Assembly: GCA_020632515.1 (NCBI GenBank)
Contig: JACKFK010000004.1
Coordinates: forward strand, 128,068 to 192,067
Reading direction: 5' to 3'
DNA from: Candidatus Omnitrophota bacterium
GTDB lineage: Bacteria > Omnitrophota > Gorgyraeia > Zapsychrales > Zapsychraceae
DNA: 64,000 nucleotides
Part shown: piece by piece, positions 3,354 through 62,454 of the stretch
How positions within the stretch are numbered: position 1 is the stretch's first letter
Layout of the letters: each line of letters starts with the position of its first letter
Made by a program: the position numbers and the translations under genes
Notes under the pieces: model-generated
Told to the model about the DNA's origin: nothing
The model's input: the letters and a program-made list of their open reading frames with translations, nothing else
The model's database searches: none

Positions 3354-4704
3354 GCTGTTTTATCAAAAATTGCTAAATCCTTTCTTTGAAAATATTCTAA
3401 AGAAACGACAGATGCTCAAATACAAGGCCTTTTTAGAAGAAAGTCAATGGTGGCCTAGAGAAAAACTCTTGGAATACCAATGGAATGAACTTACGAAATT
3501 ATTGCATCATTGTCATTATAATGTTCCGTATTGGAAGGAAAAATTTGACCAGTTGAATATTTCCTGGACCGATATCAAATCCTATGAGGATTTTTTAAAA
3601 TTACCGATTACAACAAAGGATGATATCCGAAAGCATAAAGAACGGATGCTCGCGCGAAATTATATAGGAAAAACCTGGAGTAAGCATACCGGAGGTTCCA
3701 CAGGAGAACCCATGGAGTTAGATTATACCCCAGAAAGTTATGACTGGCGGGTCGCAATCTCCAAACGCGGTTATGCCTGGACGGGGTGTGAAGATGGAAT
3801 GAAACAGTTTTATTTGTGGGGAGTTCCTTTGAAAAAACAATCAGCCATTAAGAGGTTGAAAGAAAATATTTATTATCGGATTCATCGTCAACGTTATTTT
3901 AATTGTTATGAATTTGACCATAAGGCCAAACAACGCTGTTTAAAAACGCTTAATGCGTATAAACCTGAAATTATTGTTGGCTATACAAATCCTTTATACG
4001 CATTAGCCAAATTTATCAGCGAAGAGGGTCGCTTAAATTATCAACCTAAAGCCGTAATCTCAGCGGCAGAAAAACTTCATCCTATTCAACGGGAAAAGAT
4101 TAAATCTGTTTTTAATTGCGATGTCTTTGATACTTATGGATGCCGGGAGTTTATGCTTATTGCAGCGGAAGATAAGGAACATGATGGAATGTATTTAAGT
4201 ATGGAAAACCTTTATGTGGAGATTATTAAAGATAATGGTCAACCAGCGCAGCCTGGCGAGAAAGGGCATTTAATTATTACGGATCTTCATAATTATGGTA
4301 TGCCATTTATCCGGTACCGTATCGGTGATATGGCGTTGGCTATGGAACAGACTCCAGCAAAATCTGGTCGTGGACTATTAAAAATTGCTGACGTGGTAGG
4401 GCGTTCACTGGATATGATAACGACGAAAGAGGGAAAGGAAATTCCAGGAGAATTCTTTATTCGAGTTATGAGGGATAAGCGCGGTATAGATAAGTTTCGG
4501 GTGATTCAGGAAAAAGAGGAAGAATTGATTGTGGAGATGATTAAGAATTCTTATTTTGATAATAAGCAGTTTCATGAAATTAAAGAAACAATAGGTCGTA
4601 TGGTAGGTCCTTCAATGCAGGTTGATTATCAGTTTGTCAATCAGTTGCCTTTAACGCAGACCGGAAAATTTCGTGTGACTGTATCAAAGATTCAGAGAGG
4701 GTAA
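3325..4704 (+). CDS. CapK / phenylacetate-CoA ligase (PaaK, F390-synthetase)-like adenylate-forming enzyme
   Basis: 'HTGGSTGEPMEL' AMP-binding-type motif, 'YGCREF', 'RYRIGD', C-terminal 'TGKFR'. This layout is typical of the CapK-like family found in capsule loci. An alternative GTG start at 3346 is possible. Confidence 0.65.
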   Translation: MEWEDARVYKLFYQKLLNPFFENILKKRQMLKYKAFLEESQWWPREKLLEYQWNELTKLLHHCHYNVPYWKEKFDQLNISWTDIKSYEDFLKLPITTKDDIRKHKERMLARNYIGKTWSKHTGGSTGEPMELDYTPESYDWRVAISKRGYAWTGCEDGMKQFYLWGVPLKKQSAIKRLKENIYYRIHRQRYFNCYEFDHKAKQRCLKTLNAYKPEIIVGYTNPLYALAKFISEEGRLNYQPKAVISAAEKLHPIQREKIKSVFNCDVFDTYGCREFMLIAAEDKEHDGMYLSMENLYVEIIKDNGQPAQPGEKGHLIITDLHNYGMPFIRYRIGDMALAMEQTPAKSGRGLLKIADVVGRSLDMITTKEGKEIPGEFFIRVMRDKRGIDKFRVIQEKEEELIVEMIKNSYFDNKQFHEIKETIGRMVGPSMQVDYQFVNQLPLTQTGKFRVTVSKIQRG

Positions 4705-4707
4705 AAA

Positions 4708-5805
4708 ATGAAAATTATACAAGTGGTTAGTTCTTTAGATTTTGGTGGATTGGAAAAAATGGTGATTCAATTAACGGAACGTTTAAATCAAACTGGTTCT
4801 GAGTGCAGTATTGTCTGTCTTGAAAAAGAAGGTGGTTTGGTTAATGAGGCGTTAAGAAAAAATATTCAAGTGGATGTTTTCTCGAAAAAAGATGGATTTG
4901 ACATGGACTTGATATGGAATTTAAAGAAGTATTTCCAACGAGAAGAAGCGGATATCGTTCATACTCATAATTTCGCGCCATTGATTTATGCAAGTACAGC
5001 TGCAAAATTAGCAGGGGTTCCTTGTATGAATACGCGCCATGGAAGGGCTGATAAAAAAGCTCCCTGGATATTTTGGGCGTTAAATAAAAAAATTGCTGCA
5101 GTATCTAATGATGCTAAAGAACAACTTTTGAAAAATAACAGGATTAAATCTGAAAAAGTGAAGGTGGTCTATAACGGAATTGATATACAGTCGATGCGGG
5201 CAGATTTGCAACCTAATGAAAAAGCACAGTTGCGACAATCGCTCGGAATAAAGGCGGATAGCTTTGTAATCGGAAATATAGGACGATTGGTGCGGGAAAA
5301 AGATCAAGCGACTTTATTAAAAGCGTTTCGTAAGATATCGCAGCGGACTAAGAATGTTGAATTGTTAATTGTGGGCGATGGACCGTTAAAATCCAATTTA
5401 CTTAAGCTAGCAAAGGAACTTGATATTCAAGGAAGTGTAAAGTTTGCTGGATTTCGTGAAGATATCGCGCAGATGTTACAGATTATGGATGTTTTTGTTT
5501 TATCGTCCATTATGGAAGGGATTTCTTTAACGGTATTAGAGGCCATGGCTGCTGGTTTGCCGGTGGTGGCAACGAAAGTTGGTGGGAATCCAGAAATTAT
5601 TAGTGAAGGTAAAACAGGTTTTTTGGTTCCGTTAGGTTATCCGGAAAGAATTGAATCAGCTGTCAAACGGATTATGGCTGATCCTCGGTTAGGACGAAGT
5701 TTAGGAGAGGCTGGACGCTTAAGGGTTCAAGAAAATTCTCAGTTGGAACATATGGTAAGCGTTTATCGAGAGATTTATGACGAAATCAAATCAGAAAAAG
5801 GATAA
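4708..5805 (+). CDS. Family 4 (GT-B) glycosyltransferase
   Basis: 'EGISLTVLEAMAAGLPVVATKVGGNPEIISEGKTGFLV' signature; N-terminal 'GGLEKMV'. Confidence 0.8.
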   Translation: MKIIQVVSSLDFGGLEKMVIQLTERLNQTGSECSIVCLEKEGGLVNEALRKNIQVDVFSKKDGFDMDLIWNLKKYFQREEADIVHTHNFAPLIYASTAAKLAGVPCMNTRHGRADKKAPWIFWALNKKIAAVSNDAKEQLLKNNRIKSEKVKVVYNGIDIQSMRADLQPNEKAQLRQSLGIKADSFVIGNIGRLVREKDQATLLKAFRKISQRTKNVELLIVGDGPLKSNLLKLAKELDIQGSVKFAGFREDIAQMLQIMDVFVLSSIMEGISLTVLEAMAAGLPVVATKVGGNPEIISEGKTGFLVPLGYPERIESAVKRIMADPRLGRSLGEAGRLRVQENSQLEHMVSVYREIYDEIKSEKG

Positions 5806-6976
5806 GCCAAAAGTTTTAATTTTTACTAATATTTTTCCTTCGGCGGAAAATCCAAATGTTGGATTTTATGTTTATGAACAAGTGCAGCGTTTACGGGCGG
5901 TGTACGACATAAAAATTATGATGGCAAAGCCATCAGGGGGAAATAAAAAGAAAGATAATTCTAAGGCTAGTGTAAAAGTTTTTGAAGGTATCGAGATTTT
6001 TGAGCCGCAGTATGTTTCATTACCAAAAATTGGTGTATTTTTTAACGGTTATTCGTATTATCGTGCGATAGAAAAAATTGTTGAATTAATTTATAAAGAA
6101 TTTCCCTTTGTCTTAATTATCGCCTATTGGACCTATCCTGATGGATATGCGGCTGTAAAGATTGCGAAAAAATTTCAAGTACCGGTGATTTTACGACCAC
6201 GGGGATCAGATATCAATGTTTATGCAGATAATCCGGTATTAAGATTCTTATTAAAGAGGCCGTTAAAGAAAGCATACAAGATCATTCCTGTAAGCAATCA
6301 TTTGAAAGAGCGTGTTTTACGGTTAGGTATTAATCAGCATAAGATTTGTTCCATTCTTAACGGGATTAATGCGAAAGACTTCTTTGTTATGGATAAGAAT
6401 AAGTGTCGACAAAATTTGGATTTACCTTTAGATCATAAATTAGTTTTATTTGTCGGTAATTTTATAGCAATTAAAGGGATTGAATATTTTATTGAAGCGA
6501 TACGGGTTTTGGATCAGCCTTCGCAGCAAAATTTAAGCTTTATTTTCTTAGGATCAGGGCCTTTAGCTGATAAACTACAAAAGATAGCGCGGGAACTTAA
6601 ATTTATTTCGATTCGTATAATCGGAGATATTGCGCATAATCAGTTACGTGTTTGGATGAATGCAAGTGATTTACTTTGTCTGCCGAGCTTGCACGAAGGC
6701 TGTCCGAATGTAGTGATTGAAAGTCTGGCCTGTGGGTTGCCAGTTGTCGCCTCAAATGTTGGGGGAATCCCTGAGTTAATTAACAATGATGAATTAGGAA
6801 TTTTGGTACCAGCCAAAGATGAACGTTCTTTAGCTGATGCGATTGAAAAAGGATTGATTAAAAAATGGAATCAAGATTATTTGCTTAACCGTGTAAAAAA
6901 CTTTAGCTGGGATAATGTGGTTGAGAAATTACAGAAGGAATGTGATTTAGCCATTTCTTCTGCGAAGAAGGATTGA
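5777..6976 (+). CDS. Family 4 (GT-B) glycosyltransferase
   Basis: 'HEGCPNVVIESLACGLPVVASNVGGIPELINNDELGILV' signature; overlaps the previous gene by 29 nt. Confidence 0.7.
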   Translation: MTKSNQKKDKPKVLIFTNIFPSAENPNVGFYVYEQVQRLRAVYDIKIMMAKPSGGNKKKDNSKASVKVFEGIEIFEPQYVSLPKIGVFFNGYSYYRAIEKIVELIYKEFPFVLIIAYWTYPDGYAAVKIAKKFQVPVILRPRGSDINVYADNPVLRFLLKRPLKKAYKIIPVSNHLKERVLRLGINQHKICSILNGINAKDFFVMDKNKCRQNLDLPLDHKLVLFVGNFIAIKGIEYFIEAIRVLDQPSQQNLSFIFLGSGPLADKLQKIARELKFISIRIIGDIAHNQLRVWMNASDLLCLPSLHEGCPNVVIESLACGLPVVASNVGGIPELINNDELGILVPAKDERSLADAIEKGLIKKWNQDYLLNRVKNFSWDNVVEKLQKECDLAISSAKKD

Positions 6977-6978
6977 AA

Positions 6979-9078
6979 ATGAGTAAAAAAACGATATTAG
7001 TTACAGGGGCTGCTGGTTTTGTTGGTCGGCATTTGCTTAAACATCTTCAGAGTCGGGATTATGATATTGTAGCTATGGTAAGAGAGAATACGGACGTAGC
7101 TTTTCTTGAGCAAATGGGGATTCGGTATATAAAAGCGGATTTACGCGTCAAGGAAAGTTTATATCCTTTATTCGATAAAGTGGATCATGTCGTTCATTTA
7201 GCGACGACCATGAAAGGACCATGGGAAGAATATGAAGAATCTACTGTTAACGGTACACGACGTTTGCTTGAAATCACCAAAGAAAAAGGAATTCAAGGTT
7301 TTACCTTTATTAGTTCTATCGCGGTTTATGATGTTTTTTCTGCTGATAACGGGGTTTTGACAGAGGGTTCTAAAATTAATGACAATAATTTATCGATGTA
7401 TGAAAAATCAAAAATTCAAGCCGAAGCTCAGGTTCAATCTTTTATTCATGACGGGTTGGCGGGTGTAATTTTAAGATGCGGGGTTATTTATGGTCCTGGC
7501 GGAGCCCTTTTTCCTCCACGGCTTGGGTTCGCCTCGGGGAAAAATAAATATTTAACGATCGGCAGTGGGCTTAATCGGATTCCGTTTGTTTACGTTGAGA
7601 ATTTAGTGGAAGCCATTCGACTAACGATAGAAAATCCATCGAGTCATGGTGAAACATTCAACATTGTTGACGATCAAGACATCGCGCAGTTGGAATATTT
7701 GAATATGGTTAAGACCCATGTCAATCCATCGCTTAAAGTTTGCAAGATACCGTATGGTGTTTGGTTAACATTTAGTCAATGTGTTGGGGTTTTATTAAAA
7801 CTTCTTAAACGGCCGTCACCGTTACGCAAAGTTTATCTTTATCAATGCCGGCAACAGCTAACGTATTCAAATCGGAAGGCTAAAAATAAACTGGGATGGA
7901 AACCATCACAGAATAGCCAATCCGCAATGCTAACAACGATGAAGTGGTTTAAGGATCAACAGACACATCATCGGATTGTTGATCCTAAGTTGGCCCGAAA
8001 AACAGTTCTTTTAAAGAAACCGCAGAATGTCGCATTGATTGGTTGTGGAGTTATCGCGAAAACGCATTTACAGATTTTAAACCGTATTGACGGTGTTAAC
8101 GTGGTTGGTTTATTTGATCAGAACATTCAGGCTGCGGAAGCATTAGTGAAGGAATTCGGGAGGGGGAAAGCGTATGCGTCATTGGATGATCTTTTGAATA
8201 ATGAAAAGATTGATGTGGTGCATATTTTAACGCCACCACAATCCCGTAAAGAAATCGCGCAGAAATGCGCGCAAAAAGGGTGTCATCTTTTTTTAGAAAA
8301 ACCCATGGCGATGGATAGTCATGATGCGAAGGCTATTTTGGCCGCGGCGAACGAATTTAATGTTAAGCTTTGCGTTGGTCATAATCATTTATTTGATCCT
8401 CCAATGATTAAAGCTCGTCAGCTAATAATTGATGGAGAAGTTGGAAAAATTCTTTCGGTTGAAAGCTGGTATGGATTTAACCTTGGCGCGAATTTAACTT
8501 CACGCTATATGGTGCCAGGCGCGGAGAACCATTGGTCGATGCAATTGCCAGGCCAATTGTATCAGAATTTAATTTCACATCCATTATCCGTGTTGAGTGA
8601 CTGTATGGGACGTCCGCAAGAGATTTATGCTCAGACGGTTTCTGCTAATGTGGTCAAGTGCATGAAAAGTGATGAGTTAAAAGTTATGTTAAAGTCTGAC
8701 CATACTGTCGGCAATTTAACAGTATCATTAGCTGTTAATCCGCGGTATCAATTATTGAATATTTATGGAACGAATATGTGTTTGTATGTTGATTTTCTCA
8801 ATAAAACCATGATTAAACACGCGACACCTAAAGGCATTCCCAAAGCAATTTCCCGAGCACTGATGAGTATTGTCGCAGGGTGGGTCTTAATTACATCGAC
8901 ACTGCGCAATGTATTTAAAGTTTTAACAAAGACTTTTACCTACTTTGATGGTACAGAAATTTTAATTAAGGAATTTTATCGACGATTAGAAGACGGTGGG
9001 CCAATGCCGGTTAGTGGTGAGGAAGGTGTTGAGTCGATGGAAATTATGGATGAGATTTGGAGTCAGATTAATATTTGA
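6979..9078 (+). CDS. Fusion protein: N-terminal NAD-dependent sugar epimerase/dehydratase (extended SDR) + C-terminal Gfo/Idh/MocA-family oxidoreductase
   Basis: N-terminal half: 'ILVTGAAGFVGRHL' Rossmann motif and 'YEKSK' YxxxK catalytic motif. C-terminal half, from about aa 345: 'VALIGCGVIAKTHL' second Rossmann motif and 'LFLEKPMA' (the EKP motif of Gfo/Idh/MocA). ATG 6979 is preferred over TTG 6973. Confidence 0.7.
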   Translation: MSKKTILVTGAAGFVGRHLLKHLQSRDYDIVAMVRENTDVAFLEQMGIRYIKADLRVKESLYPLFDKVDHVVHLATTMKGPWEEYEESTVNGTRRLLEITKEKGIQGFTFISSIAVYDVFSADNGVLTEGSKINDNNLSMYEKSKIQAEAQVQSFIHDGLAGVILRCGVIYGPGGALFPPRLGFASGKNKYLTIGSGLNRIPFVYVENLVEAIRLTIENPSSHGETFNIVDDQDIAQLEYLNMVKTHVNPSLKVCKIPYGVWLTFSQCVGVLLKLLKRPSPLRKVYLYQCRQQLTYSNRKAKNKLGWKPSQNSQSAMLTTMKWFKDQQTHHRIVDPKLARKTVLLKKPQNVALIGCGVIAKTHLQILNRIDGVNVVGLFDQNIQAAEALVKEFGRGKAYASLDDLLNNEKIDVVHILTPPQSRKEIAQKCAQKGCHLFLEKPMAMDSHDAKAILAAANEFNVKLCVGHNHLFDPPMIKARQLIIDGEVGKILSVESWYGFNLGANLTSRYMVPGAENHWSMQLPGQLYQNLISHPLSVLSDCMGRPQEIYAQTVSANVVKCMKSDELKVMLKSDHTVGNLTVSLAVNPRYQLLNIYGTNMCLYVDFLNKTMIKHATPKGIPKAISRALMSIVAGWVLITSTLRNVFKVLTKTFTYFDGTEILIKEFYRRLEDGGPMPVSGEEGVESMEIMDEIWSQINI

Positions 9079-10833: not shown

Positions 10834-11997
10834 ATGAATATGCCTATAGAAAACTTTATAAAATTTGTATTTTGGTTAGCGTTTTTTTTCGTAGGCTACG
10901 CGTATATTTTATATCCATTTTTATTAATTGTTATTGATAACCTGGCGCCCAAGAAAGATTTTCAACAAAGCGATGAAGCTTTATCAGTTGCTATTCTGGT
11001 AGCTGCCCATAATGAAGAAAAAGTTATTGCGAATAAAATTAAAAATTGTTTAGCGTTAGATTATCCGATGGAATTTTTACAAATTGTGATCGCCTCAGAT
11101 GGATCAGATGACAAGACTAATGAAATTGTGCGAAAACATCAAAGTAAAAATGTGATCCTGATGGATTATCCTCAGCGTCAAGGAAAAATTAATGTGCTGA
11201 ATCAAACGATTCCAAATATTCAAAGCGAGATTGTGGTCTTTAGTGATGCTAACACGCTTTTTCATCATGACGCGGTTAAAAATCTGGTAAGGCATTTTGC
11301 CGATAAAAGAATTGGGTGTGTTTGCGGTGGATTGCATTTTATCAATGCGGATGGGAGTCATACTGCGGATTTAGAAGGGTTTTATTGGCGATATGAGACA
11401 TTTATGAAAAATATCGAAGGTCGACGGGGATCATTGCTAGGTGCTAATGGCGGAATTTACGCTATTCGAAAAACACTTTATGAGCCGTGTCTAGAAGATA
11501 CCATTATCGATGATTTTATGATCCCGATGAAAATCTTAGAAAAGGGATTTAAAGTTATTTACGACCCAAGTGCTAGCGCAAAAGAAGAATCTGCACATAA
11601 AATTGTTCAGGAAAAACAACGACGTATTCGTATTGGTGCCGGAGATTTTCAAGCCTTAACCAGGTTGTCGCATATGCTTAATCCTGTTTTAGGGTTCTCG
11701 GCTTTGGCTTTTTGGTCACATAAGGTTTTACGATGGTTGGCGCCATTCTTTTTGATTACGATATTTTTGACAAATATCCTTTTATTAAAAGATCCTATTT
11801 ACATTTTTATTTTTCTAGGACAATGTCTTTTTTATTTGTCAGCGTTTTTTGGACAACTGCTTAGCTGGGCGGGTATCAAAGTAAAGTTTTTTAATTTATG
11901 CTATTACTTTGTATCAATGAATTTGGCGTTATTATTAGGATTTGTTCGGTTTATTTCTGGTGAACAAGCCGCGACATGGAATAGAACGGAACGATAA
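10834..11997 (+). CDS. Membrane-embedded family 2 glycosyltransferase with synthase-like architecture
   Basis: N-terminal TM helix; 'AILVAAHNEE', 'ASDGSDD', 'FSDAN' (DxD position); 'QEKQRRIRIG' at the position of the QxxRW motif; 3-4 C-terminal TM helices. The layout resembles PgaC/IcaA/BcsA-type synthases. Confidence 0.7.
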   Translation: MNMPIENFIKFVFWLAFFFVGYAYILYPFLLIVIDNLAPKKDFQQSDEALSVAILVAAHNEEKVIANKIKNCLALDYPMEFLQIVIASDGSDDKTNEIVRKHQSKNVILMDYPQRQGKINVLNQTIPNIQSEIVVFSDANTLFHHDAVKNLVRHFADKRIGCVCGGLHFINADGSHTADLEGFYWRYETFMKNIEGRRGSLLGANGGIYAIRKTLYEPCLEDTIIDDFMIPMKILEKGFKVIYDPSASAKEESAHKIVQEKQRRIRIGAGDFQALTRLSHMLNPVLGFSALAFWSHKVLRWLAPFFLITIFLTNILLLKDPIYIFIFLGQCLFYLSAFFGQLLSWAGIKVKFFNLCYYFVSMNLALLLGFVRFISGEQAATWNRTER

Positions 11998-11998
11998 A

Positions 11999-13093
11999 AT
12001 GGCGAAGAATATAAATCGATGGATTGGCAGTTATCTTAAGCAGGAATTAAAGAAAGTTTTTAATACAAAGCGACATCACAAAAAAGTTCATGTTATGTTT
12101 TCGTGTGTGGATCATTATGAGCCCGACTGGCATGACGCTGATGAGAAAACGCAGCTGGAACGTGTACAGCGTTGGGTTGAAAAATATCCTGCATTAGCAA
12201 AAAAGCATAAAGATGCGGATGGATGTCATCCACGGCATACTTTCTTTTATCCTGCGGAAGTTTATAATTCTGTGCATTTAGATTTATTGGCCAAGATTTG
12301 TAAACAAGGTTTTGCGGAAGTAGAAGTTCATTTGCATCATGATAATGATACGGAAGAAACATTAAGAATAAAATTAGAGAAAGCAAAGAAAGATTTTAGT
12401 CAGCATGGATTGTTAAGTCGGCGGAAACTATCAGGACAGATTCGCTTTGGATTTATTCATGGAAATTGGGCGCTTAATAATTCTCGTAAAGACGGCTGTT
12501 GGTGTGGTGTTAATGACGAAGCGCGTATTTTAGCGGATTGCGGATGCTACGCGGATTTTACTTATCCTTCAGCGCCGAGTGAAACACAGCCGAAGATTAT
12601 TAATCGGATTTATTACACGCGGTCGCATCCTTTGAAAGCAAAAACGCATAATTATGGTGTTGACGTAAAAACGGGCCGGCATACTAAAGCGCATTTGCTT
12701 ATGGTGCAGGGGCCGCTAACATTTAATTGGACAAAACGTAAAAAAGGAATTTTTCCCAGGATTGAAAATGGCGATATCACCGGGGCTAATCCCCCCACTA
12801 AAGATCGTGTTGATTTATGGATCAAACAGTATATTAGTGTAAAAGGAAAACCTGATTGGATATTTGTCAAAGTGTACACGCATGGTGCTCCGGAGAAGAA
12901 CGCGCATACCTTATTAGGAAATCCTATGGATGAAATGTTTTCTTATTTGGAAGAAAAATATAATGACGGCATGAATTTTGCTCTTCATTATGTCAGCGCG
13001 CGTGAGATGTTTAATATTATTAAAGCTGCTGAAGCCGGAGAACAAGGCCTGCCCGGGGAATATCGGGATTATATATTAGAAAAAAATATTTAG
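11999..13093 (+). CDS. Conserved hypothetical; His/Asp-rich, possibly a divergent metal-dependent polysaccharide deacetylase/esterase
   Basis: Motifs 'SCVDHYEPDW', 'VEVHLHHDND', 'FIHGNWALNN'. Starts 1 nt after the GT2 stop (start moved from 11942 to ATG 11999). The functional call is based on motif shape and context only. Confidence 0.35.
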   Translation: MAKNINRWIGSYLKQELKKVFNTKRHHKKVHVMFSCVDHYEPDWHDADEKTQLERVQRWVEKYPALAKKHKDADGCHPRHTFFYPAEVYNSVHLDLLAKICKQGFAEVEVHLHHDNDTEETLRIKLEKAKKDFSQHGLLSRRKLSGQIRFGFIHGNWALNNSRKDGCWCGVNDEARILADCGCYADFTYPSAPSETQPKIINRIYYTRSHPLKAKTHNYGVDVKTGRHTKAHLLMVQGPLTFNWTKRKKGIFPRIENGDITGANPPTKDRVDLWIKQYISVKGKPDWIFVKVYTHGAPEKNAHTLLGNPMDEMFSYLEEKYNDGMNFALHYVSAREMFNIIKAAEAGEQGLPGEYRDYILEKNI

Positions 13094-14223: not shown

Positions 14224-14260
14224 ATCATCAGTTATCGGTGTTTTGTGTGGAAAGGTATTT

Positions 14261-16858
14261 ATGACGAAATTACAGCAATATTTGATATTGGCAGCGGTGA
14301 TCATTATTGGTTTTATGTTTTTAAATAAAAATGAATCTTCTCTAAAATCAAAACAAGCTAAGAAAATAAGCGAAGAAGTTGTTGTTCTGAGCAATTTTGA
14401 AGATCCAAAAGTGTGGGGTATTTCACCGGAACACGGGTTTTCAATCCGGGTAACGAAAAAACATAGCACACAGGGAAAGTATTCATTAGAGGTGAAATTT
14501 CCGCAAAAAGATTATCCTAGTATCAATACAAAGAAGTTGGAGCAAAATTGGGGAGATTATGAATATTTGTTATTGGACGTTTTTAATCCACAGGATGAGT
14601 CCATTGATTTTCGTATTCGCTTGGACGATTTATCAAAAAAACGTGTCAACATTCCTTATCGGCTTGAGCCTGGCGCCAATGTCATTAAAATAGCCAAATC
14701 TCAGATCGCGGCTAAAATCAACGCGGAAAAAATCCGTTTTGTTGTTTTTTATCTTAATGATCCACGTAAGCGTCTTACATTGTATTTTGATAATCTTCGT
14801 CTGGAGAAATCAGGATTAATTCAGAATATTGAAACGAAATTAAAGAATAAAGATACTGTTCAAACACAAGCCTCAGCGCAACCATTGCCACTGCGAAAAG
14901 CTGTTGACCTGCCATCAAAACCTGTTCTCACACAAGGCGAATTAAAAGTAGCCTTGGCTAAATTAAAGGATGAAAAAGAAAAGGTTGTTTTTATATCTTC
15001 TGGAATCCCATTTGCGCGCGGACAGTTGAAAGCTATTAACGACTTTGTCATAACCGATACGAATGGTCAAGAGATTCCTATCGCTGCGAAGGTTTTGGCT
15101 CGCTGGCCGCAAGATCAATCAATTCGTTCTGTCTTGGTGCAGTTTCAATATCCGATTGAGGCAATTTACGAATATGTTTTATTTCGCTGGGGAGTGGCAA
15201 GAACGACAAAAGATTTAGACATTGTGGAGCCGCGTTGGCAATATCCCGAGGGCGTTGTCGTGATGCCGGCGGAATGGCTGTGTTCGTCGGAAGTGACAGG
15301 GGAACAAGTTCCGTTAGGGATTGGCTATTTTTATGATAAATATGATAAGAAAATATTAAATAATTTTGAAAAAGTAAAAAATAAACCATGGACTGGGAAG
15401 TTAACTGTTGACGGCTTTTATTCGACCCCACATGTGTTTTATCAGTTATACGCCCGCTCAGGTGAATTAAATTATTTCCTTGCGGCGAGAAAAGAGCTGC
15501 TTCATTATCGGGATACGCAACTCATTTTGGATGGAGAAAACCGTGGTCGTAGCACACAAGGGCCTAAAGGGCGGTATGTTTATGTTCAGGCTATGATGGA
15601 TGATTATTTATTAACGGGAGATCCTAAATCATTGGAGGTGGCCAGATACATGGCTGAATACTTAAAGAATTATTTTCCGCCGGAAAAAGCTTTTTATCCC
15701 AAAGGCGCTGAGTATTTTTGGACCGAACGAACCGCGGCATTTCCATTTTTAGGTATTATAACTTACTATGAATTGACGCAGGATAAAGAATATTTAAAAT
15801 TAGCCGACGAGTATATGGAAAACCTCTACAAGATGCAGATGCAGTATCCGGAACGCGGTGGATTTATTCATAACCTTTACGCGCATGATCCAGAAGAAGG
15901 CGCGCGCAAAGATGAGTATGGAGGTTCTCCATTTATGACGGGATTGTTATTAGAGTCGATCATTAAATATCATAAAATTACAAAAAGTGAAAAAGCAGCT
16001 GATTCAATCTTTCGAGTGGTGGATTGGCTGATTAATGAGGGCTTGGTGGCGGATGGGGATTCTTTTAAATATATGACCGCGGATAAATATCTTAATACTG
16101 ACGGTGATCCGGATGTAAATCTTCTCGTTGTTCATGGATTGGGATACGCGTATCGTCTTAGCGGTTATCAAAATGAAGAGTATATAAAAGTCGGACAGAA
16201 GGTTTTTAACCGCGGGGTAAAAGATGGATTTGTTGCCAAACGAAAACATTTTAATCAGAATTTCCGTAACAGCGGGCATTATCTGGCGTATGTTGCGGAT
16301 GGTCTGGAACAGCTTCAAGTTTTAAAACCATTAGCTGAGCAGGACGAGGAGAGAACGATTGAGAATGTGTTATTCTTTGAAGGTTTTGAATATTCTTTAG
16401 GGAAGTTTAAGGGAATGGGCGACGCAGCGCTTGACCTTGATAAGGACGATGTCTATTTAAACGGGAATTCTTTTCACATTAAAAGTAAATTTCAGAAATC
16501 CACTCTGTCTGCTGGTTTTCTTCTGGAAAATTGGAATATGGACGATTTCTCCCGAATCAATTTTGCTTATAAAATTCCATCGGAAACACCGGTAGGGATG
16601 CTGGTCATCACCCAATTTGGCGATAGTATTTGTATCGGCGGGACTTCCCGGTATCAATGCGGGCGTACTCAAGCAAAAGAGGAATTTAAGCTGATCGATG
16701 ATGGTCAGTGGCACGAAGCGAATTTTGATGTTAGACTTGCTGTGCGTAGTGTCTTGCCGCAATTAAAATCATTGACTGGGTTTCAATATTTTACCAATGG
16801 TAACGCGACGGAACATGATGAATTTTGGATTGATGATTTCAAAATAAGACGAGAATAA
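14261..16858 (+). CDS. Large N-terminally anchored extracytoplasmic protein of unknown function: two beta-sandwich (CBM-like) modules flank a helical-repeat core. Candidate glycan-processing enzyme.
   Basis: Signal-anchor 'LILAAVIIIGFMF'. N- and C-terminal segments have the pattern of jelly-roll binding modules ('FE..W....S.G..SL.V.F', terminal 'FWIDDFKI'). The central 350-700 aa is rich in paired helices ('WTERTAAFPFLG', 'GGSPFMTGLLLESI'). ATG 14261 is preferred to TTG 14243. Confidence 0.45.
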   Translation: MTKLQQYLILAAVIIIGFMFLNKNESSLKSKQAKKISEEVVVLSNFEDPKVWGISPEHGFSIRVTKKHSTQGKYSLEVKFPQKDYPSINTKKLEQNWGDYEYLLLDVFNPQDESIDFRIRLDDLSKKRVNIPYRLEPGANVIKIAKSQIAAKINAEKIRFVVFYLNDPRKRLTLYFDNLRLEKSGLIQNIETKLKNKDTVQTQASAQPLPLRKAVDLPSKPVLTQGELKVALAKLKDEKEKVVFISSGIPFARGQLKAINDFVITDTNGQEIPIAAKVLARWPQDQSIRSVLVQFQYPIEAIYEYVLFRWGVARTTKDLDIVEPRWQYPEGVVVMPAEWLCSSEVTGEQVPLGIGYFYDKYDKKILNNFEKVKNKPWTGKLTVDGFYSTPHVFYQLYARSGELNYFLAARKELLHYRDTQLILDGENRGRSTQGPKGRYVYVQAMMDDYLLTGDPKSLEVARYMAEYLKNYFPPEKAFYPKGAEYFWTERTAAFPFLGIITYYELTQDKEYLKLADEYMENLYKMQMQYPERGGFIHNLYAHDPEEGARKDEYGGSPFMTGLLLESIIKYHKITKSEKAADSIFRVVDWLINEGLVADGDSFKYMTADKYLNTDGDPDVNLLVVHGLGYAYRLSGYQNEEYIKVGQKVFNRGVKDGFVAKRKHFNQNFRNSGHYLAYVADGLEQLQVLKPLAEQDEERTIENVLFFEGFEYSLGKFKGMGDAALDLDKDDVYLNGNSFHIKSKFQKSTLSAGFLLENWNMDDFSRINFAYKIPSETPVGMLVITQFGDSICIGGTSRYQCGRTQAKEEFKLIDDGQWHEANFDVRLAVRSVLPQLKSLTGFQYFTNGNATEHDEFWIDDFKIRRE

Positions 16859-16860
16859 CA

Positions 16861-17685
16861 ATGGCATTTATCACGAAAATAAAAGATTTTAAAAAGGAAA
16901 TCGCTGCGTTTTTAATTATGCTTGCCGCGTATTTCCCTACACTTATCTGGATGTGGGATCGTTGGTGGTCAAAGGATTCCTATTATACGCATGGTATTTT
17001 GGTGCCAATTGTTAGCGGATTTTTGGTTTGGCAATTGAAGGATGATTTAGCCAAAATTAAACGCAAAGAATCGGCCTGGGCGATCAGATTAATTGTTATC
17101 GGTTTAGGGGTCCATTTATTCAGTTCTCTTTTCAGGGTTTATTTTTCTTCGGGGTTCTCAATGATTCTCGTGCTGATGGGGTTGATTTTATTTTTCTTCG
17201 GTGGAGAATTTCTGAAGAGAATTATTTTTCCTGTATTATTCTTGCTCTTTATGATTCCTATTCCTCTAGTAGCCATTGCCACAATTAGTTTTAAACTTAA
17301 AATTCTTGCCGCTGAAATCGCAACTGTTGTTTTAAATAATATGCGGATTCCCGCGTTGCGTGAAGGTAGCGTGATTCGTATGCGCGACGCGTATGTGATT
17401 GTCGACGATGTCTGCAGTGGGTTGCGGTCATTAATCGCGTTAACGGCATTAGGCAGTGTCTTTGCCTATTGGATGAAAGATAAAGCTTATAAACGAATAT
17501 TGCTGTTTTTATCCACAATACCTATCGCTATTATTACTAATGTTTGCCGGGTAATATTGTTATGCTGTATCAGTGAAATTTGGGGGCCGAAATACGCGAC
17601 CGGATTTATTCACGATCTTTCCGGATTTATGGTATTTGCCTTAGCGTTTATTTTATTGTTTGTTGTAGGAAAGTTAATTGAATGA
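16861..17685 (+). CDS. Exosortase (EpsH/Xrt family) transpeptidase
   Basis: About 8 TM helices. Carries the family's three signature sites: 'VDDVCSGLRSL' (Cys), 'ITNVCRVILL' (Arg) and 'FIHDLSGF' (His). N-terminal 'WW...SYYTHG'. Confidence 0.85.
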   Translation: MAFITKIKDFKKEIAAFLIMLAAYFPTLIWMWDRWWSKDSYYTHGILVPIVSGFLVWQLKDDLAKIKRKESAWAIRLIVIGLGVHLFSSLFRVYFSSGFSMILVLMGLILFFFGGEFLKRIIFPVLFLLFMIPIPLVAIATISFKLKILAAEIATVVLNNMRIPALREGSVIRMRDAYVIVDDVCSGLRSLIALTALGSVFAYWMKDKAYKRILLFLSTIPIAIITNVCRVILLCCISEIWGPKYATGFIHDLSGFMVFALAFILLFVVGKLIE

Positions 17686-18320
17686 AAAAAGAGAATATCA
17701 GATATTTTTTTATTATTGCTATTTTAATTGTTTCATGTATAATTTCCTGGAATCTATATTTTAAGATTTATCTTCAGGAGGATACGGTCAATATTCACCA
17801 ATTCCCGAAGACATTTGGAGTATGGGAATCCGAGGAATTGCCGATCACAGAAGATGAATATGCTCTTTTAGAAACCCGAAATGCTTTCACCAGACGATAT
17901 TTTACCCAAGATGGTAAGGAAGTTTATATTTTTATCGTGTATTCCCAGCATAATCGCAAGGTTTCGCACCCGCCTGAGGTTTGCTATCTTGGCAATGGGG
18001 TTAGCATTATCAAAAGTGAAATGGAACGGCTTGATGGGCCGAAAGAATATAGTTTATTAAAAACCAATAAATTACTACTTGAAAAGGGCGATTTACGTCA
18101 AGTAGCTTATTATTGGTTTAAAGTTGGTCATTCATTTACAGCGAATTATTGGAAGCAACAGGGACTAATTGCCCTTAAAACGCTGTTAGGAAAACCAGCG
18201 AGTAGTGCCTTGATTAGAGTGTCGGCGTCTGTTAAAGACAGTGCAACGGCTAATGCGGAGCAAGATATGAAGGATTTCATTCAAATCATGATTCCTTTGC
18301 TTTTTAAATACCTCCCTTAA
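17682..18320 (+). CDS. EpsI-family exosortase-associated protein
   Basis: Single N-terminal TM helix, then 'FPKTFGVWESEE...', 'VYIFIVYSQHNRKVSHPPEVCYLGNG'; matches the EpsI family pattern. ATGA overlap with the exosortase stop indicates translational coupling. Confidence 0.7.
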   Translation: MKKENIRYFFIIAILIVSCIISWNLYFKIYLQEDTVNIHQFPKTFGVWESEELPITEDEYALLETRNAFTRRYFTQDGKEVYIFIVYSQHNRKVSHPPEVCYLGNGVSIIKSEMERLDGPKEYSLLKTNKLLLEKGDLRQVAYYWFKVGHSFTANYWKQQGLIALKTLLGKPASSALIRVSASVKDSATANAEQDMKDFIQIMIPLLFKYLP

Positions 18321-18451: not shown

Positions 18452-18483
18452 ATCATAATGTTTAATTTTATCAACATTATGAT
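18452..18483 (+). promoter_or_regulatory. Perfect 11-bp inverted repeat (ATCATAATGTT-N10-AACATTATGAT); candidate enhancer-binding-protein site (UAS)
   Basis: Read directly from the sequence. Centred about 139 bp upstream of the -24 GG of the sigma-54 promoter at 18605, with very AT-rich DNA in between. Confidence 0.4.
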
Positions 18484-18604
18484 TCCGGAAATAGAGCAGA
18501 GAAGGATATGCTTTTTTTGTAAAAGAAAAATATTTTTAAGTATTTGATAATAAAAGAATTACGAAAAAATTAAAAAGAAAGATAATAGAGTGGTTTTCAA
18601 GATT

Positions 18605-18620
18605 TGGCACGAATTTTGCT
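18605..18620 (+). promoter_or_regulatory. Sigma-54 (RpoN) -24/-12 promoter: TGGCAC-gaatt-TTGCT
   Basis: 11/11 match to the TGGCAC-N5-TTGCW consensus with correct GG-N10-GC spacing. Lies at the 3' end of a 314-bp intergenic gap, just upstream of ATG 18635. Confidence 0.55.
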
Positions 18621-18634
18621 CTAAGAGTCTATAT

Positions 18635-19492
18635 ATGTTAAAACCGAGTTTAAAAAATCAGAAATCAGCAAAAATTATCCTAAGTTCTTTTATTGTAGGG
18701 TTTTATACGCTTTGTGTGGCGTCCGCGTGGGCAACAGTAACCTTTGTGAAGCCTCAAGATGTTACCCATCAAGTGGAAATTGGAAAGAAGTCAGATATTC
18801 CGATGAATGTATCAATGGAAACCAAGGCTTTCGCGCCAGAACCAACGTCTTTAGCACTTTTTGGGGGGGGATTTATTGGCATGATCATGAGTTTTATTCG
18901 TAAAACTTATGCGATTATTAAAAGGCTGTTTGATTTTGTAGCGAGTTTAATTGGCTTTATTATTTTATTGCCTCTTTTTGCGGCTGTAACGTTATTAGTA
19001 AAGTTAACTTCCAAAGGGCCGATTCTTTATTCTCAAATAAGGGTAGGAAAAGATGGCAGTCTATTTCGCATCTTTAAATTTCGTACTATGAAGGTGGACG
19101 CGGAAAAAGAAACCGGACCAGTTTGGGCGGCGGAAAATGATAATCGGCTGACTTCAATCGGAAAGTTTTTGCGAAAAACACATTTGGATGAGATTCCACA
19201 ATTATTTAATGTCCTTAAAGGGGAAATGAGTATTGTTGGGCCTAGACCAGAGCGGCCTGTTTTTGTGGATAAATTTAAAGCTACAATTCCAAGTTATGAA
19301 AAGCGTTTAATGGTTAAGCCTGGAATTACAGGGTTAGCGCAAGTATGGCACAGCTATGATGAAACGATTGAAGATGTAAAGAAGAAATTAAAGTATGATC
19401 TGCTTTATATTAAGAAATTTGGAATTTGGGCAGATTTAGGGATTTTCTTAAGAACATTTCGCGTTGTTGTTACAGGTGAAGGCGCACGTTAA
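18635..19492 (+). CDS. Phosphoglycosyl (undecaprenyl-phosphate sugar) transferase of the small PglC/WbaP-C-terminal type, with an N-terminal extension that is a signal peptide plus a PEP-CTERM-like sorting motif
   Basis: PGT core: 'KRLFDFVASLIGFIILLPLF', 'KGPILYSQIRVGKDG', 'FKFRTM', 'LDEIPQLFNVLKGEMSIVGPRPERP'. The extension has 'IILSSFIVGFYTLCVASAWA' (signal-peptide-like), then 'PEPTSLALFGGGFIGMIMSFIRK' at nt 18836-18904. The start is ambiguous: GTG 18590 (track) or ATG 18635. Confidence 0.8.
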   Translation: MLKPSLKNQKSAKIILSSFIVGFYTLCVASAWATVTFVKPQDVTHQVEIGKKSDIPMNVSMETKAFAPEPTSLALFGGGFIGMIMSFIRKTYAIIKRLFDFVASLIGFIILLPLFAAVTLLVKLTSKGPILYSQIRVGKDGSLFRIFKFRTMKVDAEKETGPVWAAENDNRLTSIGKFLRKTHLDEIPQLFNVLKGEMSIVGPRPERPVFVDKFKATIPSYEKRLMVKPGITGLAQVWHSYDETIEDVKKKLKYDLLYIKKFGIWADLGIFLRTFRVVVTGEGAR

Positions 19493-19538
19493 GATATTGA
19501 ATAGAAGGTTATTCAATTCCGAAAGGAGGTTGAGTCGA

Positions 19539-19808
19539 ATGGTTAAGAAAATTAAAGATTACGCATATAATGCGATGCTTATCGCACTCGTTCCATTGCT
19601 AACAGGTTGTAATGGTGGCGGAGGTGGTTCTACTTCAGGACTAGGCGGTTTATTTGCTTCTTTCGGAGGCGGAGACGGTTCTGGTGGACCTGGCGTTTTA
19701 GGGTCAGCCGGCGATCTTGCCAGCATCAATAACCCTGAGCCAGCTAGTTTATTGCTTATGGGTAGTGGTATGGCCGCATTAGCTTATTACAAAAATAGAA
19801 AAAAATAA
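19539..19808 (+). CDS. 89-aa glycine-rich PEP-CTERM protein with a lipoprotein signal peptide
   Basis: Strong SD 'AAAGGAGG' at 19522-19529. Lipobox 'LLTGC' (Cys24). Gly/Ser-rich core 'NGGGGGSTSGLGGLFASFGGGDGSGGPG'. C-terminal 'NPEPASLLLMGSGMAALAYYKNRKK' is a canonical PEP-CTERM signal. Start moved from the track's 19464. Confidence 0.75.
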   Translation: MVKKIKDYAYNAMLIALVPLLTGCNGGGGGSTSGLGGLFASFGGGDGSGGPGVLGSAGDLASINNPEPASLLLMGSGMAALAYYKNRKK

Positions 19809-54296: not shown

Positions 54297-55484
54297 ATGT
54301 TAGCCAAACCTAGTCCCAAAAAGAATATCCTGCTCATTGAGGATGATGATTCAGTCGTTCAGATGTTAGCAATGCTGCTTGAAACCAGGGGGTATAACGT
54401 CAAAGCGGTTGCGACAGGTCAAGAAGCTTTGGATAAGATCACAAATGGTGTGGATATTATTTTACTTGATTTAACCCTACCCGATTTTGATGGCTTAGAT
54501 ATTTGCCGAAAATTTAAAGATAATGAATCCATTTGTCATATCCCAATTATTATTTTAAGCGCCAAGATGTTGCCGCAGGCGGTGGTTGACGCTCTTTATT
54601 TAGGCGCAGATGATTATTTAGGCAAACCATTTGACTATGAAGAATTAATCGCCAGGATCGAGGCGGTAACGCGCCGCAGCAAAGGGTATCAAAATGGGAG
54701 CTTTATGAATAGTGGTGAAAGTGATGTGATTGTGGAGTTACGGCAGATTATAAATGATGGAAAGGTTGTTCCTTTTTATCAGCCGATTTTTCAAATCGAA
54801 CCGTTTCAATTATATGGTTTTGAAGCGCTTTGTCGGCCAGATAGCAAAAGCATTCTGATGAATCCTGAGATTTTGTTTAAAGCCGCGATACAGTTTGGTG
54901 TTTATCAGGAATTGGAAATGTTATCTTGGAAATCCGCATTAATTAACTCGCAACAATACCTTAATGGCCATAAGTTGTTTTTAAACTGTAATCCTTATTT
55001 TGTAGAAAGTCCGAAGTTCACAGAGATTCGAAATTTATTCGTTGAACAAAACGTCAATATTGACAATATTATTTTAGAAATTACTGAACGTTCGGCTATG
55101 TCACATGTAGATTTATTTTACGAACAATTAAAACGATATCGCCAAGCCGGTTTCAAATTTGCTGTTGATGATGTCGGTGGTGGTTTTGCCAGTCTGGAAT
55201 CAATTGTTAAAACAAAACCGGAGGTTTTAAAAATCGATAGGCATATTATTGAAGGCATTCATGAAGATGAATATAAGCAAAGTGTGGTTCGTTTTATTAT
55301 TTCTTTTTGTAAGGAAAATAACATTTTTTCAATTGCGGAAGGTTTGGAAACTAAACAAGATTTGCAGATGGTCAAGGAATTAGGGGTTGACGCGGTGCAG
55401 GGGTATTATCTTTCTCGGCCTATGGCGACAGTGAATATGCAGGAAGTGTTCAAAACACGGGAATTGATTGAAGCCATTAAATAA
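54297..55484 (+). CDS. Response-regulator receiver + EAL domain protein (c-di-GMP phosphodiesterase)
   Basis: Receiver: 'ILLIEDDD', 'IILLDLTLPDFDG', 'KP'. EAL domain: 'FEALCRP', 'LNCNP', 'LEITE', 'AVDDVGGGFASL', 'KIDR', 'IAEGLET', 'QGYYLSRP'. Confidence 0.85.
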   Translation: MLAKPSPKKNILLIEDDDSVVQMLAMLLETRGYNVKAVATGQEALDKITNGVDIILLDLTLPDFDGLDICRKFKDNESICHIPIIILSAKMLPQAVVDALYLGADDYLGKPFDYEELIARIEAVTRRSKGYQNGSFMNSGESDVIVELRQIINDGKVVPFYQPIFQIEPFQLYGFEALCRPDSKSILMNPEILFKAAIQFGVYQELEMLSWKSALINSQQYLNGHKLFLNCNPYFVESPKFTEIRNLFVEQNVNIDNIILEITERSAMSHVDLFYEQLKRYRQAGFKFAVDDVGGGFASLESIVKTKPEVLKIDRHIIEGIHEDEYKQSVVRFIISFCKENNIFSIAEGLETKQDLQMVKELGVDAVQGYYLSRPMATVNMQEVFKTRELIEAIK

Positions 55485-55650: not shown

Positions 55651-56523
55651 TTGGCTATGTCTAAACATAATGCGGAAAAACGATTATTTCCTCTATTAAT
55701 TACCGCGGTTAATACCATTTTTTGGCATCCGGTCATATTTTTCCCTTTTTTATTAACCGCATTCATTCAGTTTTTTATTTTGGAAATACTTTATTTTTCT
55801 CCGCGAGAACCGTTGAATGTTTTTTTTGGGCCGATCATCAGCAAAATATGGTCTCCTGAATATCTTCATTATCCATTAAATTTGATTTTGCTGCCAAAAC
55901 TATTTCAATACCTTCAATATCCTGTTTTTATTTTGCTGAGCAGCTATTTGGTGAGTGTGTCTATTGTCATTATTAAAAATATTAATGAAGACAAATCAAT
56001 TCATCTAAAACCTTTATTTAAACAAACATTTTCAATGTACGTCCATATTGTTGTATCAGCTTTATTATCCTTTTGTTTGTATATCTGTTTAATGTATTTT
56101 TTTGATATGGTTATTGCGCGGGCCATGGAAATTCGTTCTCAGTCAGGTAAATTTTTTATTTTAAAACGGTTAATTTTAGAAGGGGCACCTTATTTTTATC
56201 TGTTTTTTAGTGTTTTGATTACCACCTTGTTTGCTTATGTGTTTCCAATGATTGCGATTGAACGCAAAAAAGTATTTCATGCGATTTGGGAAAATTTAAA
56301 GTTATTAAAAGGGTCGTTTTTCTTTACTTTTTTTGTTGTATTGATTCCATCGCTTTTTATTATACCCATTTTAATATTGCGCACAACCGTGAGCATTGAT
56401 GGCGCTTTTCCTGAAATAAGCGTTTGGATTCTCGTTTTGAGTATATGTGTTTTATTGTTTATTGATGCGGTTGTTTATACAGCGTTAACGCTTTTTTATT
56501 TAATGTTAAGAGAAAAACAATGA
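55651..56523 (+). CDS. Polytopic membrane protein, unknown function
   Basis: About 7 hydrophobic segments, no motif recognised. TTG 55651 or ATG 55657 start. ATGA overlap with the next gene. Confidence 0.35.
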   Translation: MAMSKHNAEKRLFPLLITAVNTIFWHPVIFFPFLLTAFIQFFILEILYFSPREPLNVFFGPIISKIWSPEYLHYPLNLILLPKLFQYLQYPVFILLSSYLVSVSIVIIKNINEDKSIHLKPLFKQTFSMYVHIVVSALLSFCLYICLMYFFDMVIARAMEIRSQSGKFFILKRLILEGAPYFYLFFSVLITTLFAYVFPMIAIERKKVFHAIWENLKLLKGSFFFTFFVVLIPSLFIIPILILRTTVSIDGAFPEISVWILVLSICVLLFIDAVVYTALTLFYLMLREKQ

Positions 56524-57410: not shown

Positions 57411-57412
57411 TT

Positions 57413-58705: not shown

Positions 58706-58715
58706 AAGAAAAAGT

Positions 58716-60116: not shown

Positions 60117-60119
60117 CCT

Positions 60120-62423: not shown

Positions 62424-62454
62424 ATTTTATAGGTGGTTTAGGATAAAAAAAGAG

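Follow-up and report, generated by a model that had tools for sequence, protein, structure and literature searches.

A 64,000-nucleotide stretch of a Candidatus Omnitrophota contig (JACKFK010000004.1; hereafter the window) encodes, at positions 19539-19808 of its forward strand, an 89-amino-acid (aa) protein with a sorting signal at each end: a lipoprotein-type signal peptide leading to a lipobox cysteine, and a C-terminal PEP-CTERM domain, the signal for exosortase. Profile searches indicate that this mini-gene represents a large family, rather than a curiosity of one genome, and that its products form a distinct, widespread and undescribed subclass of exosortase substrate, as judged from their sequences. 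The reading that we favour, and to which we give about an even chance of being right, is that the protein is a linker-only lipoprotein substrate of exosortase, tethering an exosortase-attached moiety to the membrane.

The gene and its immediate surroundings comprise the following features.
19523-19529 (+): Shine-Dalgarno sequence AAGGAGG, 9 nt ahead of the ATG, from inspection of the sequence
19539-19808 (+): mini-gene open reading frame (ORF), 89 aa, translation MVKKIKDYAYNAMLIALVPLLTGC NGGGGGSTSGLGGLFASFGGGDGSGGPGVLGSAGDLASINN PEPASLLLMGSGMAALAYYKNRKK
19539-19607 (+): predicted lipoprotein-type signal peptide, residues 1-23 (...VPLLTG), from a PS51257-type rule and an AlphaFold2 helix over residues 2-22
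19608-19610 (+): Cys24 codon TGT, predicted lipidation and signal peptidase II (SPase II) site, from family conservation
19611-19733 (+): Gly/Ser-rich disordered core, residues 25-65, with the CxGGGG tether and GLGGLF (LGSLF in the family)
19734-19808 (+): PEP-CTERM sorting domain PEPASLLLMGSGMAALAYYKNRKK and stop codon; PF07589 and TIGR02595 cut-offs passed, AlphaFold2 helix
19829-19866 (+): intrinsic terminator closing the operon, 17-bp perfect stem and U-tract, -27.6 kcal/mol, z = -7.3

A first-pass annotation of this DNA had described a strong Shine-Dalgarno sequence, a lipobox LTGC ending in Cys24, a 41-residue Gly/Ser core and a PEP-CTERM tail, all of which are confirmed by the sequence and by hidden Markov models (HMMs). 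It had also placed the gene 46 nt downstream of a PEP-CTERM-bearing phosphoglycosyl transferase (PGT) gene and ahead of a strong terminator, and here coordinates and RNA folding agree: the PGT stop codon lies at 19490-19492, and the terminator, which a simple pattern scan missed and folding recovered, is matched by 0 of 200 shuffles. Residues 1-23 contain the n-region and h-region of a signal peptide of the lipoprotein type. Lysines stand at positions 3, 4 and 6, positions -10 to -5 are uncharged, and L-L-T-G-C ends in Cys24; MVKKIKDYAYNAMLIALVPLLTG-C24 passes the lipoprotein pattern (PROSITE PS51257-type: Cys at 15-35, K/R in the n-region, h-region uncharged), and by this measure the protein fits the lipoprotein signal rule. 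At the other end, residues 66-89 score 22.2 bits against PF07589 (cut-off 20.7) and 19.2 bits against TIGR02595 (cut-off 16), and the tripartite C-terminal signal is complete, with PEP at residues 66-68, an AlphaFold2 helix over 68-88 and a terminal KNRKK before the stop codon. Because every computable defining feature is present, we assign the protein to the PEP-CTERM domain class as a bona fide member; no other ORF in the window (37.5% GC) carries such a tail.

Between the two signals there is little beyond glycine and serine. The 41-aa core contains 17 Gly and 6 Ser (56%; counted from the translation), and the mature part of the protein has no Lys. AlphaFold2, run with the family alignment, returns the two terminal helices (residues 2-22 and 68-88, the latter at a predicted local distance difference test score, pLDDT, of ~90) flanking a core (residues 23-67) at pLDDT 52-59 that lacks secondary structure but for a single helical turn over residues 36-39, the equivalent of LGSLF. 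The earlier impression that the product looks less like an enzyme is justified, since the core has no predicted fold. An identical protein, in the same gene order, occurs on GCA_020430025.1 and on three Logan assemblies, and is annotated as 'PEP-CTERM sorting domain-containing protein [Candidatus Omnitrophica bacterium]'. Sequencing runs SRR12358675/6 are among those with the identical gene.

Homologues of the mini-protein are abundant. A word-indexed search returned three proteins only, all retaining VPLLTGCxGGG and PEPASLLLMG; a profile built from these three and searched against 1.84 billion representatives retrieved 322 clusters (50% identity) at E <= 1e-3 and 68 at E <= 1e-10, nearly all of them 80-130 aa long and aligned over their full length. 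A Cys after the h-region combined with a C-terminal PEP tail is found in 246 of the 248 relatives retrieved; among these 246 two-anchor members the Cys is present in 100% and G at -1 in 97%. In a 78-sequence alignment (A2), C24, P66, E67, P68 and L73 are invariant, and G23, G75 and G77 nearly so. The consensus begins L-P-[LF]-[LIV]-[YAT]-G-C-[GNQ]-G-G-G-G ... (LGSLF), with a GGGG run that is almost invariant after the Cys, and ends [LIV]-A-T-[IV]-H-N-P-E-P-A-[ST]-M-L-L-L-G-[SG]-G ... [KR]4-6. The strict PS51257-type rule is passed by 135/152 sequences, with the Cys at a median position of 24; the failures mostly have Cys or His at -4 to -2 or truncated N-termini. Cores range from 16 to 89 aa (median 45) and average 30% Gly, 16% Ser and 6% Thr, with K and R at ~0.3% each.

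Only generic PEP-CTERM tail models from Pfam and NCBIfam match the query or any of the 78 aligned members. Against the named families PepA (NF033554), THxN (NF038125), EDSAP-1 (NF041538) and NF038129, the query reaches 16-18 bits (cut-offs 65-100), with only its 23-residue tail matched, and the scores of the 78 members are likewise below the cut-offs. In the literature searched, we found no published description of a lipobox PEP-CTERM protein or of this mini-family. Organism names among the members give only a sketchy range (Omnitrophica/Omnitrophota, one 'Deltaproteobacteria' metagenome-assembled genome (MAG) and one 'Planctomycetales' MAG). A profile scan of contigs with the family alignment returned mostly generic PEP-CTERM proteins and a single true member, in locus L009 (related loci are cited here by such numbers), because the only usable pattern was PEPAS[ML]LL; the taxonomic range is therefore poorly defined. 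Locus L005 contains two tandem mini-gene paralogues (71-340 and 401-670) with near-identical ends (VPLLTGCGGGG, PEPASLLLMG) and diverged Gly-rich cores; its antisense strand shows Pro-rich pseudo-ORFs of 85 aa.

The lipobox sets these proteins apart from other PEP-CTERM proteins, including their own neighbours. Arrays of PEP-CTERM proteins of 185-302 aa share operons with the mini-gene in six loci (L009, L021, L023, L025, L027, L028), and none of their 26 members has a lipobox; every one has an AxA-type type-I signal peptide, and only the terminal mini-protein carries the lipobox. Generic PEP-CTERM proteins of other phyla likewise have none (0/14). The profile that collected the family contained the Cys, however, and the conservation evidence is to that extent circular. 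This circularity is mitigated by a second sample that is independent of the mini-protein, namely 80 metagenomic loci fetched with an exosortase alignment. These loci hold 13 small (<= 170 aa) PEP-CTERM ORFs, nine of which have an xNPEP tail; in all nine the lipobox Cys is present too, with GGG after it. The remaining four, without xNPEP tail and without lipobox Cys, are Pro-rich, G/S/N-rich with VPEP, truncated and unrelated, respectively, and an N-terminal lipobox appears in 0 of the ~37 larger PEP-CTERM ORFs. The first-pass annotation had called two sorting signals on one small protein unusual, which these comparisons bear out, and had left room for the Cys to be a coincidence; it is instead invariant in 78/78 aligned members and in 9/9 of the exosortase-sampled ones. 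Its interpretation is thus supported in part, in that both signals are genuine and family-wide.

The mini-gene also keeps characteristic company. Four neighbouring features bear on its function.
16861-17685 (+): exosortase (EpsH family), presumed processing enzyme, PF09721 E = 4e-68
17682-18320 (+): EpsI (DUF3485), exosortase-associated, TIGR02914 98.9 (cut-off 42.8), PF11984 E = 3.5e-33
18605-18619 (+): sigma-54 (-24/-12) promoter TGGCACGAATTTTGC, the sole perfect TGGCAC-N5-TTGC in the window
18635-19492 (+): PGT (Bac_transf), PF02397 E = 2e-67, TIGR03025 310.7 (cut-off 295.6)

The first-pass annotation had suggested looking in related genomes for a syntenic mini-gene, and one near exosortase, EpsI and PGT genes does recur, in many independent loci. 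It directly follows a Bac_transf PGT gene in the window, in L026, L027, L030, L038, L039, L047 and L048 and on the P0003 contig; it closes a PEP-CTERM array downstream of the PGT in L009, L021, L023, L025, L028 and L033, and it lies inside such an array in L064. In L029 (interval 6910-8282), a divergent member directly follows a Glycos_transf_4 gene, a WecA/MraY-type PGT of a different superfamily, in a DegT/PIG-L/WbqC cluster. In L031 (interval 3925-8285), another belongs to an exopolysaccharide locus of the Wza/Wzc/ABC (ATP-binding cassette) type, where genes resembling Wza, Wzz and tyrosine kinases precede it and an ABC (Wzm/Wzt) exporter follows.

In the window, the PGT and the mini-gene most likely form one sigma-54-dependent operon, since the interval between them holds no promoter-like element or significant structure; a hairpin at 19496-19517 was considered as a regulatory element and rejected (z = -0.68). 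Only 15 nt separate the sigma-54 element from the PGT ATG downstream of it, which points to a 5' leader that is very short or lacking altogether. L009, L021 and L023 have this element ahead of their PGT genes, where L025, L026, L027 and L028 have TTGGCAT-N5-xTGC. Such promoters agree with what has been found for PEP-CTERM genes, the pepA transcript of Aquincola having its mapped start behind TGGCAC/CTGCTT (PMC9850573). Some ~125-150 bp ahead of the sigma-54 promoter, at 18452-18483, lies a perfect 11-bp inverted repeat, ATCATAATGTT-N10-AACATTATGAT, to which a PrsR-like enhancer-binding protein may bind.

The PGT itself has an N-terminal module (residues ~1-90) ahead of its catalytic domain, made up of a type-I signal peptide, a periplasmic stretch of ~50 residues and an internal helix, APEPTSLALFGGGFIGMIMSFIRK, that is PEP-CTERM-like. 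The helix scores 20.6 bits against PF07589 (cut-off 20.7; residues 83-105, counted from a longer GTG start at 18590). This module is kept in 7/9 orthologues (window, L009, L021, L023, L025, L027, L030), is degenerate in L028, which reads APEF, and missing from L026, and has the consensus R-A-P-E-P-[ST]-[ST]-[LM]-A-L-F-G-[SG]-G ... R-[RK]. It could dock the priming enzyme to the exosortase, or be cleaved by it.

The exosortase, encoded ~1.9 kb upstream of the mini-gene on the same strand, scores 179 against TIGR02602 (cut-off 105.6) and 69.8 against the signature model TIGR04178 (cut-off 23). It falls below the cut-off of every named subtype (190 versus 208 for XrtA) and is closest to XrtA/XrtD; C185, R189, R230 and H251 are invariant in seven orthologues. 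EpsI is separated from the PGT by a 315-nt gap. Its own N-terminus (17682-17740, MKKENIRYFFIIAILIVSC...) also satisfies the lipobox rule, at Cys19, and may simply be a signal anchor.

From these elements, the following pathway can be proposed. After Sec export, both ends of the precursor would lie in the inner membrane. Lgt and LspA, possibly with Lnt, whose processing of lipoproteins is established, would lipidate Cys24 and remove residues 1-23. The adjacent exosortase would cut at PEP and, acting as a sortase-like transpeptidase, would join the new C-terminus to its usual acceptor, presumably exopolysaccharide (EPS) or another envelope molecule. The product would be a lipopeptide of ~40-45 residues, with its N-terminal acyl anchor linked to the exosortase-added C-terminal moiety, and would serve as a flexible tether, much like Braun's lipoprotein, keeping matrix polymer on the envelope. 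A sortase-like model has been put forward for exosortases (PMC1569441; PMC11980579), and exosortases, archaeosortases and rhombosortases are thought to leave their substrates surface-anchored with a new C-terminal moiety (PMC11980579). We propose a tether role because the protein offers only a variable spacer between two conserved sorting signals. The recurrent position beside the polymer-starting enzyme fits this role, as does the effect of PepA overexpression in Aquincola, where a PEP-CTERM protein shifts EPS towards the cell-bound fraction (released EPS down, bound EPS up; PMC9850573). At position +2 the family most often has G (33%), N (17%) or Q (15%), and Asp is outside these three most frequent residues; by the E. 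coli +2 rules, which may not transfer to these phyla, the lipoprotein would therefore not be retained in the inner membrane.

Another role had been suggested for the protein, that of a lipid-tethered acceptor. This is disfavoured, since Lys and Arg are nearly absent from the cores (171/246 have neither), and the idea that the mini-protein is a Lys-based acceptor for other PEP-CTERM proteins was rejected on the same ground. A bolder version of the tether model would make the mini-protein a natural minimal exosortase substrate, in which a lipid-anchored peptide of 40-50 residues is covalently coupled to a PGT-initiated polysaccharide or lipid-linked intermediate; this we put forward tentatively, as a possibility that is clearly weaker than tethering in general.

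Several observations, besides the partial circularity of the Cys conservation, weigh against the tether model. That the protein is lipidated, cut by exosortase and active as a carrier, primer or anchor is in each case inferred from its signals. No lgt, lspA or lnt was found among the scanned ORFs of the window, and all members found come from uncultured organisms. The second end of the tether is a presumed one, as is the acceptor of the exosortase. A pure spacer does not explain the LGSLF motif or the H-N before PEP, both of which may leave room for a specific protein contact. No exosortase lies within 8 kb of the divergent members in L029 and L031. Finally, among the eight complete loci (exosortase at >= 50% identity, with all of the sequence between the PGT and the conserved gene that follows it), the mini-gene occurs in four and is missing from L032, L037, L054 and L103, whose gaps were searched and contain no hidden ORF. 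The mini-gene therefore cannot be essential for the system, and the notion that it is an obligatory core gene of this exosortase type was rejected; on this count it appears as an optional module, in roughly half of the loci of this exosortase type.

Four alternatives start from the same genuine gene. In the first, which we consider unlikely, the exosortase adds a lipid head-group, as archaeosortase ArtA and rhombosortase reportedly do, and the resulting doubly lipidated, bola-type lipopeptide modifies the envelope or staples leaflets or membranes together without binding polysaccharide. The dual-signal anatomy would look the same and the core offers no other functional feature; related sorting enzymes are described as leaving their substrates membrane-anchored, with a prenyl lipid in the case of ArtA substrates (PMC11980579). 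The tight linkage to a priming transferase and EPS genes, however, points to glycan over bulk lipid, and the invariant N-terminal anchor would be superfluous if the C-terminus carried a lipid as well.

It is also unlikely that the mini-protein is a pseudo-substrate or assembly factor, kept in the membrane by its lipid, docked through its PEP-CTERM helix to exosortase, EpsI and PGT and regulating or scaffolding them, for example by gating the complex until polymer synthesis begins, without being a structural product. Such a role would suit a gene encoded immediately after the PGT, where it is placed to share the sigma-54 promoter, and a comparable PEP module on the PGT itself. The conserved LGSLF suggests a specific contact, and the HNPEPA[ST]ML context differs from the [VI]PEPAT[LM]SL of array substrates encoded in the same operons. 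A fixed partner of the complex would nevertheless not be expected to be missing from half of similar loci, P-E-P is fully conserved as in real substrates, and both the tandem duplication in L005 and the widely varying core length are easier to reconcile with a product than with a subunit of fixed stoichiometry.

Improbable, too, and more so, is a glycan-bearing lipoprotein, whose Ser/Thr spacer would be O-glycosylated from a lipid-linked oligosaccharide started by the PGT and whose PEP-CTERM signal would serve only export and sorting of a surface glycolipoprotein. Ser/Thr-rich low-complexity PEP-CTERM proteins have been proposed to be heavily glycosylated (bioRxiv 10.1101/2023.06.07.544157), and the mini-gene, with the Ser and Thr content of its core given above, adjoins PGTs of two superfamilies. 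Gly outweighs Ser and Thr in that core, however, and a search of the cluster for a membrane protein resembling Wzy, an O-antigen ligase or an oligosaccharyltransferase brought none to light, the 383-aa protein at 11942-13093 having no predicted transmembrane segment and no family match. Glycosylation would in any case be compatible with the tether model, not exclusive of it.

We regard as very doubtful a non-lipoprotein that is cut by signal peptidase I and uses its Cys for a disulfide, a thioester or thioether, or that exposes an oligo-Gly nucleophile for head-to-tail polymerization by the exosortase. Oligo-glycine amines are the classical sortase nucleophile (sortase A, lipid II), and the GGGG after the Cys would supply one; Tyr at -2, found in 28% of members, is atypical for lipoboxes though allowed by PROSITE. 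The remainder of the site is that of a lipoprotein, with G at -1 in 97%, hydrophobic residues at -3/-4, the Cys at its usual depth and the PS51257-type rule passed by the great majority (135/152). CGGG(S) is, moreover, a common lipoprotein tether, and a disulfide is impossible in the 100/152 members with a single Cys. A spurious ORF, or chance motifs in low-complexity sequence, has a negligible chance of being the answer: the ORF is short and Gly-rich, and Gly-rich coding also yields antisense Pro-rich ORFs (as in L005), but a Shine-Dalgarno sequence, a terminator and hundreds of diverged homologues with conserved ends and a conserved operon position exclude it.

The mini-gene is the last of a ~19.5-kb single-strand polysaccharide cluster. 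The other genes of the cluster encode glycosyltransferases of families GT2 and GT4, a protein resembling acyl-CoA ligases, a fusion of epimerase and oxidoreductase, a hexapeptide transferase, a PgaC/NodC-like GT2, the 383-aa soluble protein without family, a DegT aminotransferase, an 871-aa GH127/PcRGLX-like protein, exosortase, EpsI and the PGT. The signal-anchored, GH127/PcRGLX-like protein (871 aa) lies just upstream of the exosortase block in the window (14243-16858) and in L030 (2650-5265), and a GH123-like counterpart occupies the place upstream of exosortase in L021 (1-2377) and L026 (3300-5510); this GH-like protein has no NCBIfam assignment. A polysaccharide deacetylase (PF01522) stands beside the PgaC/NodC-like GT2 preceding exosortase in L021, L025, L026, L027 and L028. 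Because the two adjoin in most related loci, the polymer of those loci is suggested to be built of amino sugars that have lost part of their N-acetyl groups, and its free amines are a conceivable acceptor for the transpeptidation. No recognisable deacetylase occurs in the window, which has the 383-aa protein in its place.

The regulators of the operon appear to have been moved elsewhere in the window.
55651-61145 (+): regulatory module comprising a 290-aa multi-transmembrane protein, a TPR protein, a GAF histidine kinase, a sigma-54 response regulator and a PocR/GAF protein, from orthology and domains

Orthologues of these five genes (24-68% identity) directly follow the mini-gene in six other loci (L009, L021, L023, L025, L028, L030). 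The module has thus apparently been displaced by ~36 kb here, the locus being split by rearrangement or insertion, and on orthology its products are the cognate regulators of the PGT/mini-gene operon. The sigma-54 response regulator scores 392 bits against the PrsR model TIGR02915, below the cut-off of 502.6. The 290-aa protein (55651-56523) has ~6-7 predicted transmembrane segments, matches no Pfam or NCBIfam model even at E = 1 and is fused to the TPR protein in L026 (9445-11151); it could serve the soluble GAF kinase as its sensor in the membrane. A response-regulator/EAL gene (a c-di-GMP phosphodiesterase; 54297-55484) precedes the module, and an AlgX/GDSL-like acyl-esterase gene and a sulfotransferase gene (61167-63417) come after it. 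These neighbours hint at c-di-GMP control and at O-acetylation or sulfation of the polymer.

To our knowledge, it has been an open question since the system was predicted in 2006 which moiety an exosortase adds to a PEP-CTERM protein at its newly cut C-terminus. The mini-protein is a tractable probe for this question, with ~40 residues, no domain, a built-in lipid handle and a compact operon with exosortase, EpsI and PGT, and the compact operon and small substrate suit heterologous expression and top-down mass spectrometry. If it is the minimal substrate envisaged above, its product would reveal the acceptor of exosortase transpeptidation and, together with the PEP module fused to the PGT, would point to a new mechanism, in which the priming of the polymer, the sorting of proteins and the covalent attachment of matrix to the outer membrane are physically coupled. 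If the tether model is true, it would give a molecular account of cell-bound exopolysaccharide in PEP-CTERM flocs and biofilms. Members of the family are now named 'PEP-CTERM sorting domain-containing protein' or 'hypothetical protein', and deserve an annotation model of their own.

The closest known systems include the PEP-CTERM substrates, such as the flocculation protein PepA of Zoogloea and Aquincola, which share the N-terminal signal peptide and the C-terminal P-E-P, transmembrane helix and basic tail. They, too, are encoded in EPS loci alongside exosortase and EpsI, and have a sigma-54 promoter together with a regulator of the PrsR-like kind. PepA-type and array proteins, however, are ~185-300 aa long, with type-I signal peptides and real domains, whereas members of the mini-family are 80-130 aa long and domain-free, with an invariant lipobox Cys and a distinct HNPEP context. 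Archaeosortase ArtA with PGF-CTERM, rhombosortase with GlyGly-CTERM and myxosortase with MYXO-CTERM resemble the system in their tripartite C-terminal signal, their polytopic membrane enzyme and a proposed new C-terminal anchor (PMC11980579). They differ in motifs and enzymes, and their substrates are large folded proteins with ordinary signal peptides, none of them described as linker-only with an added N-terminal lipobox.

As a functional analogue only, the mini-protein resembles Braun's lipoprotein (Lpp), which is likewise very small, has an N-terminal acyl-Cys and is joined through its C-terminus to an envelope polymer by a transpeptidase, features that are predicted here. No homology is implied. 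Lpp is a trimeric coiled coil whose terminal Lys is linked to peptidoglycan by L,D-transpeptidases; the mini-protein is Gly-rich and disordered, has a mature part without Lys and carries a PEP-CTERM signal for exosortase, and it shows neither coiled-coil heptads, nor a Lys at the end of the mature part, nor a match to any Lpp model. Should the tether model hold, it would be the second mini-lipoprotein, after Lpp, to staple an envelope polymer covalently to the membrane. Lipoprotein tethers of the CGGGS type also follow a lipidated Cys, predicted in the present case, with a Gly/Ser-rich unstructured segment. Those tethers, however, lead to a folded domain, whereas that of the mini-protein leads only to a second sorting signal.

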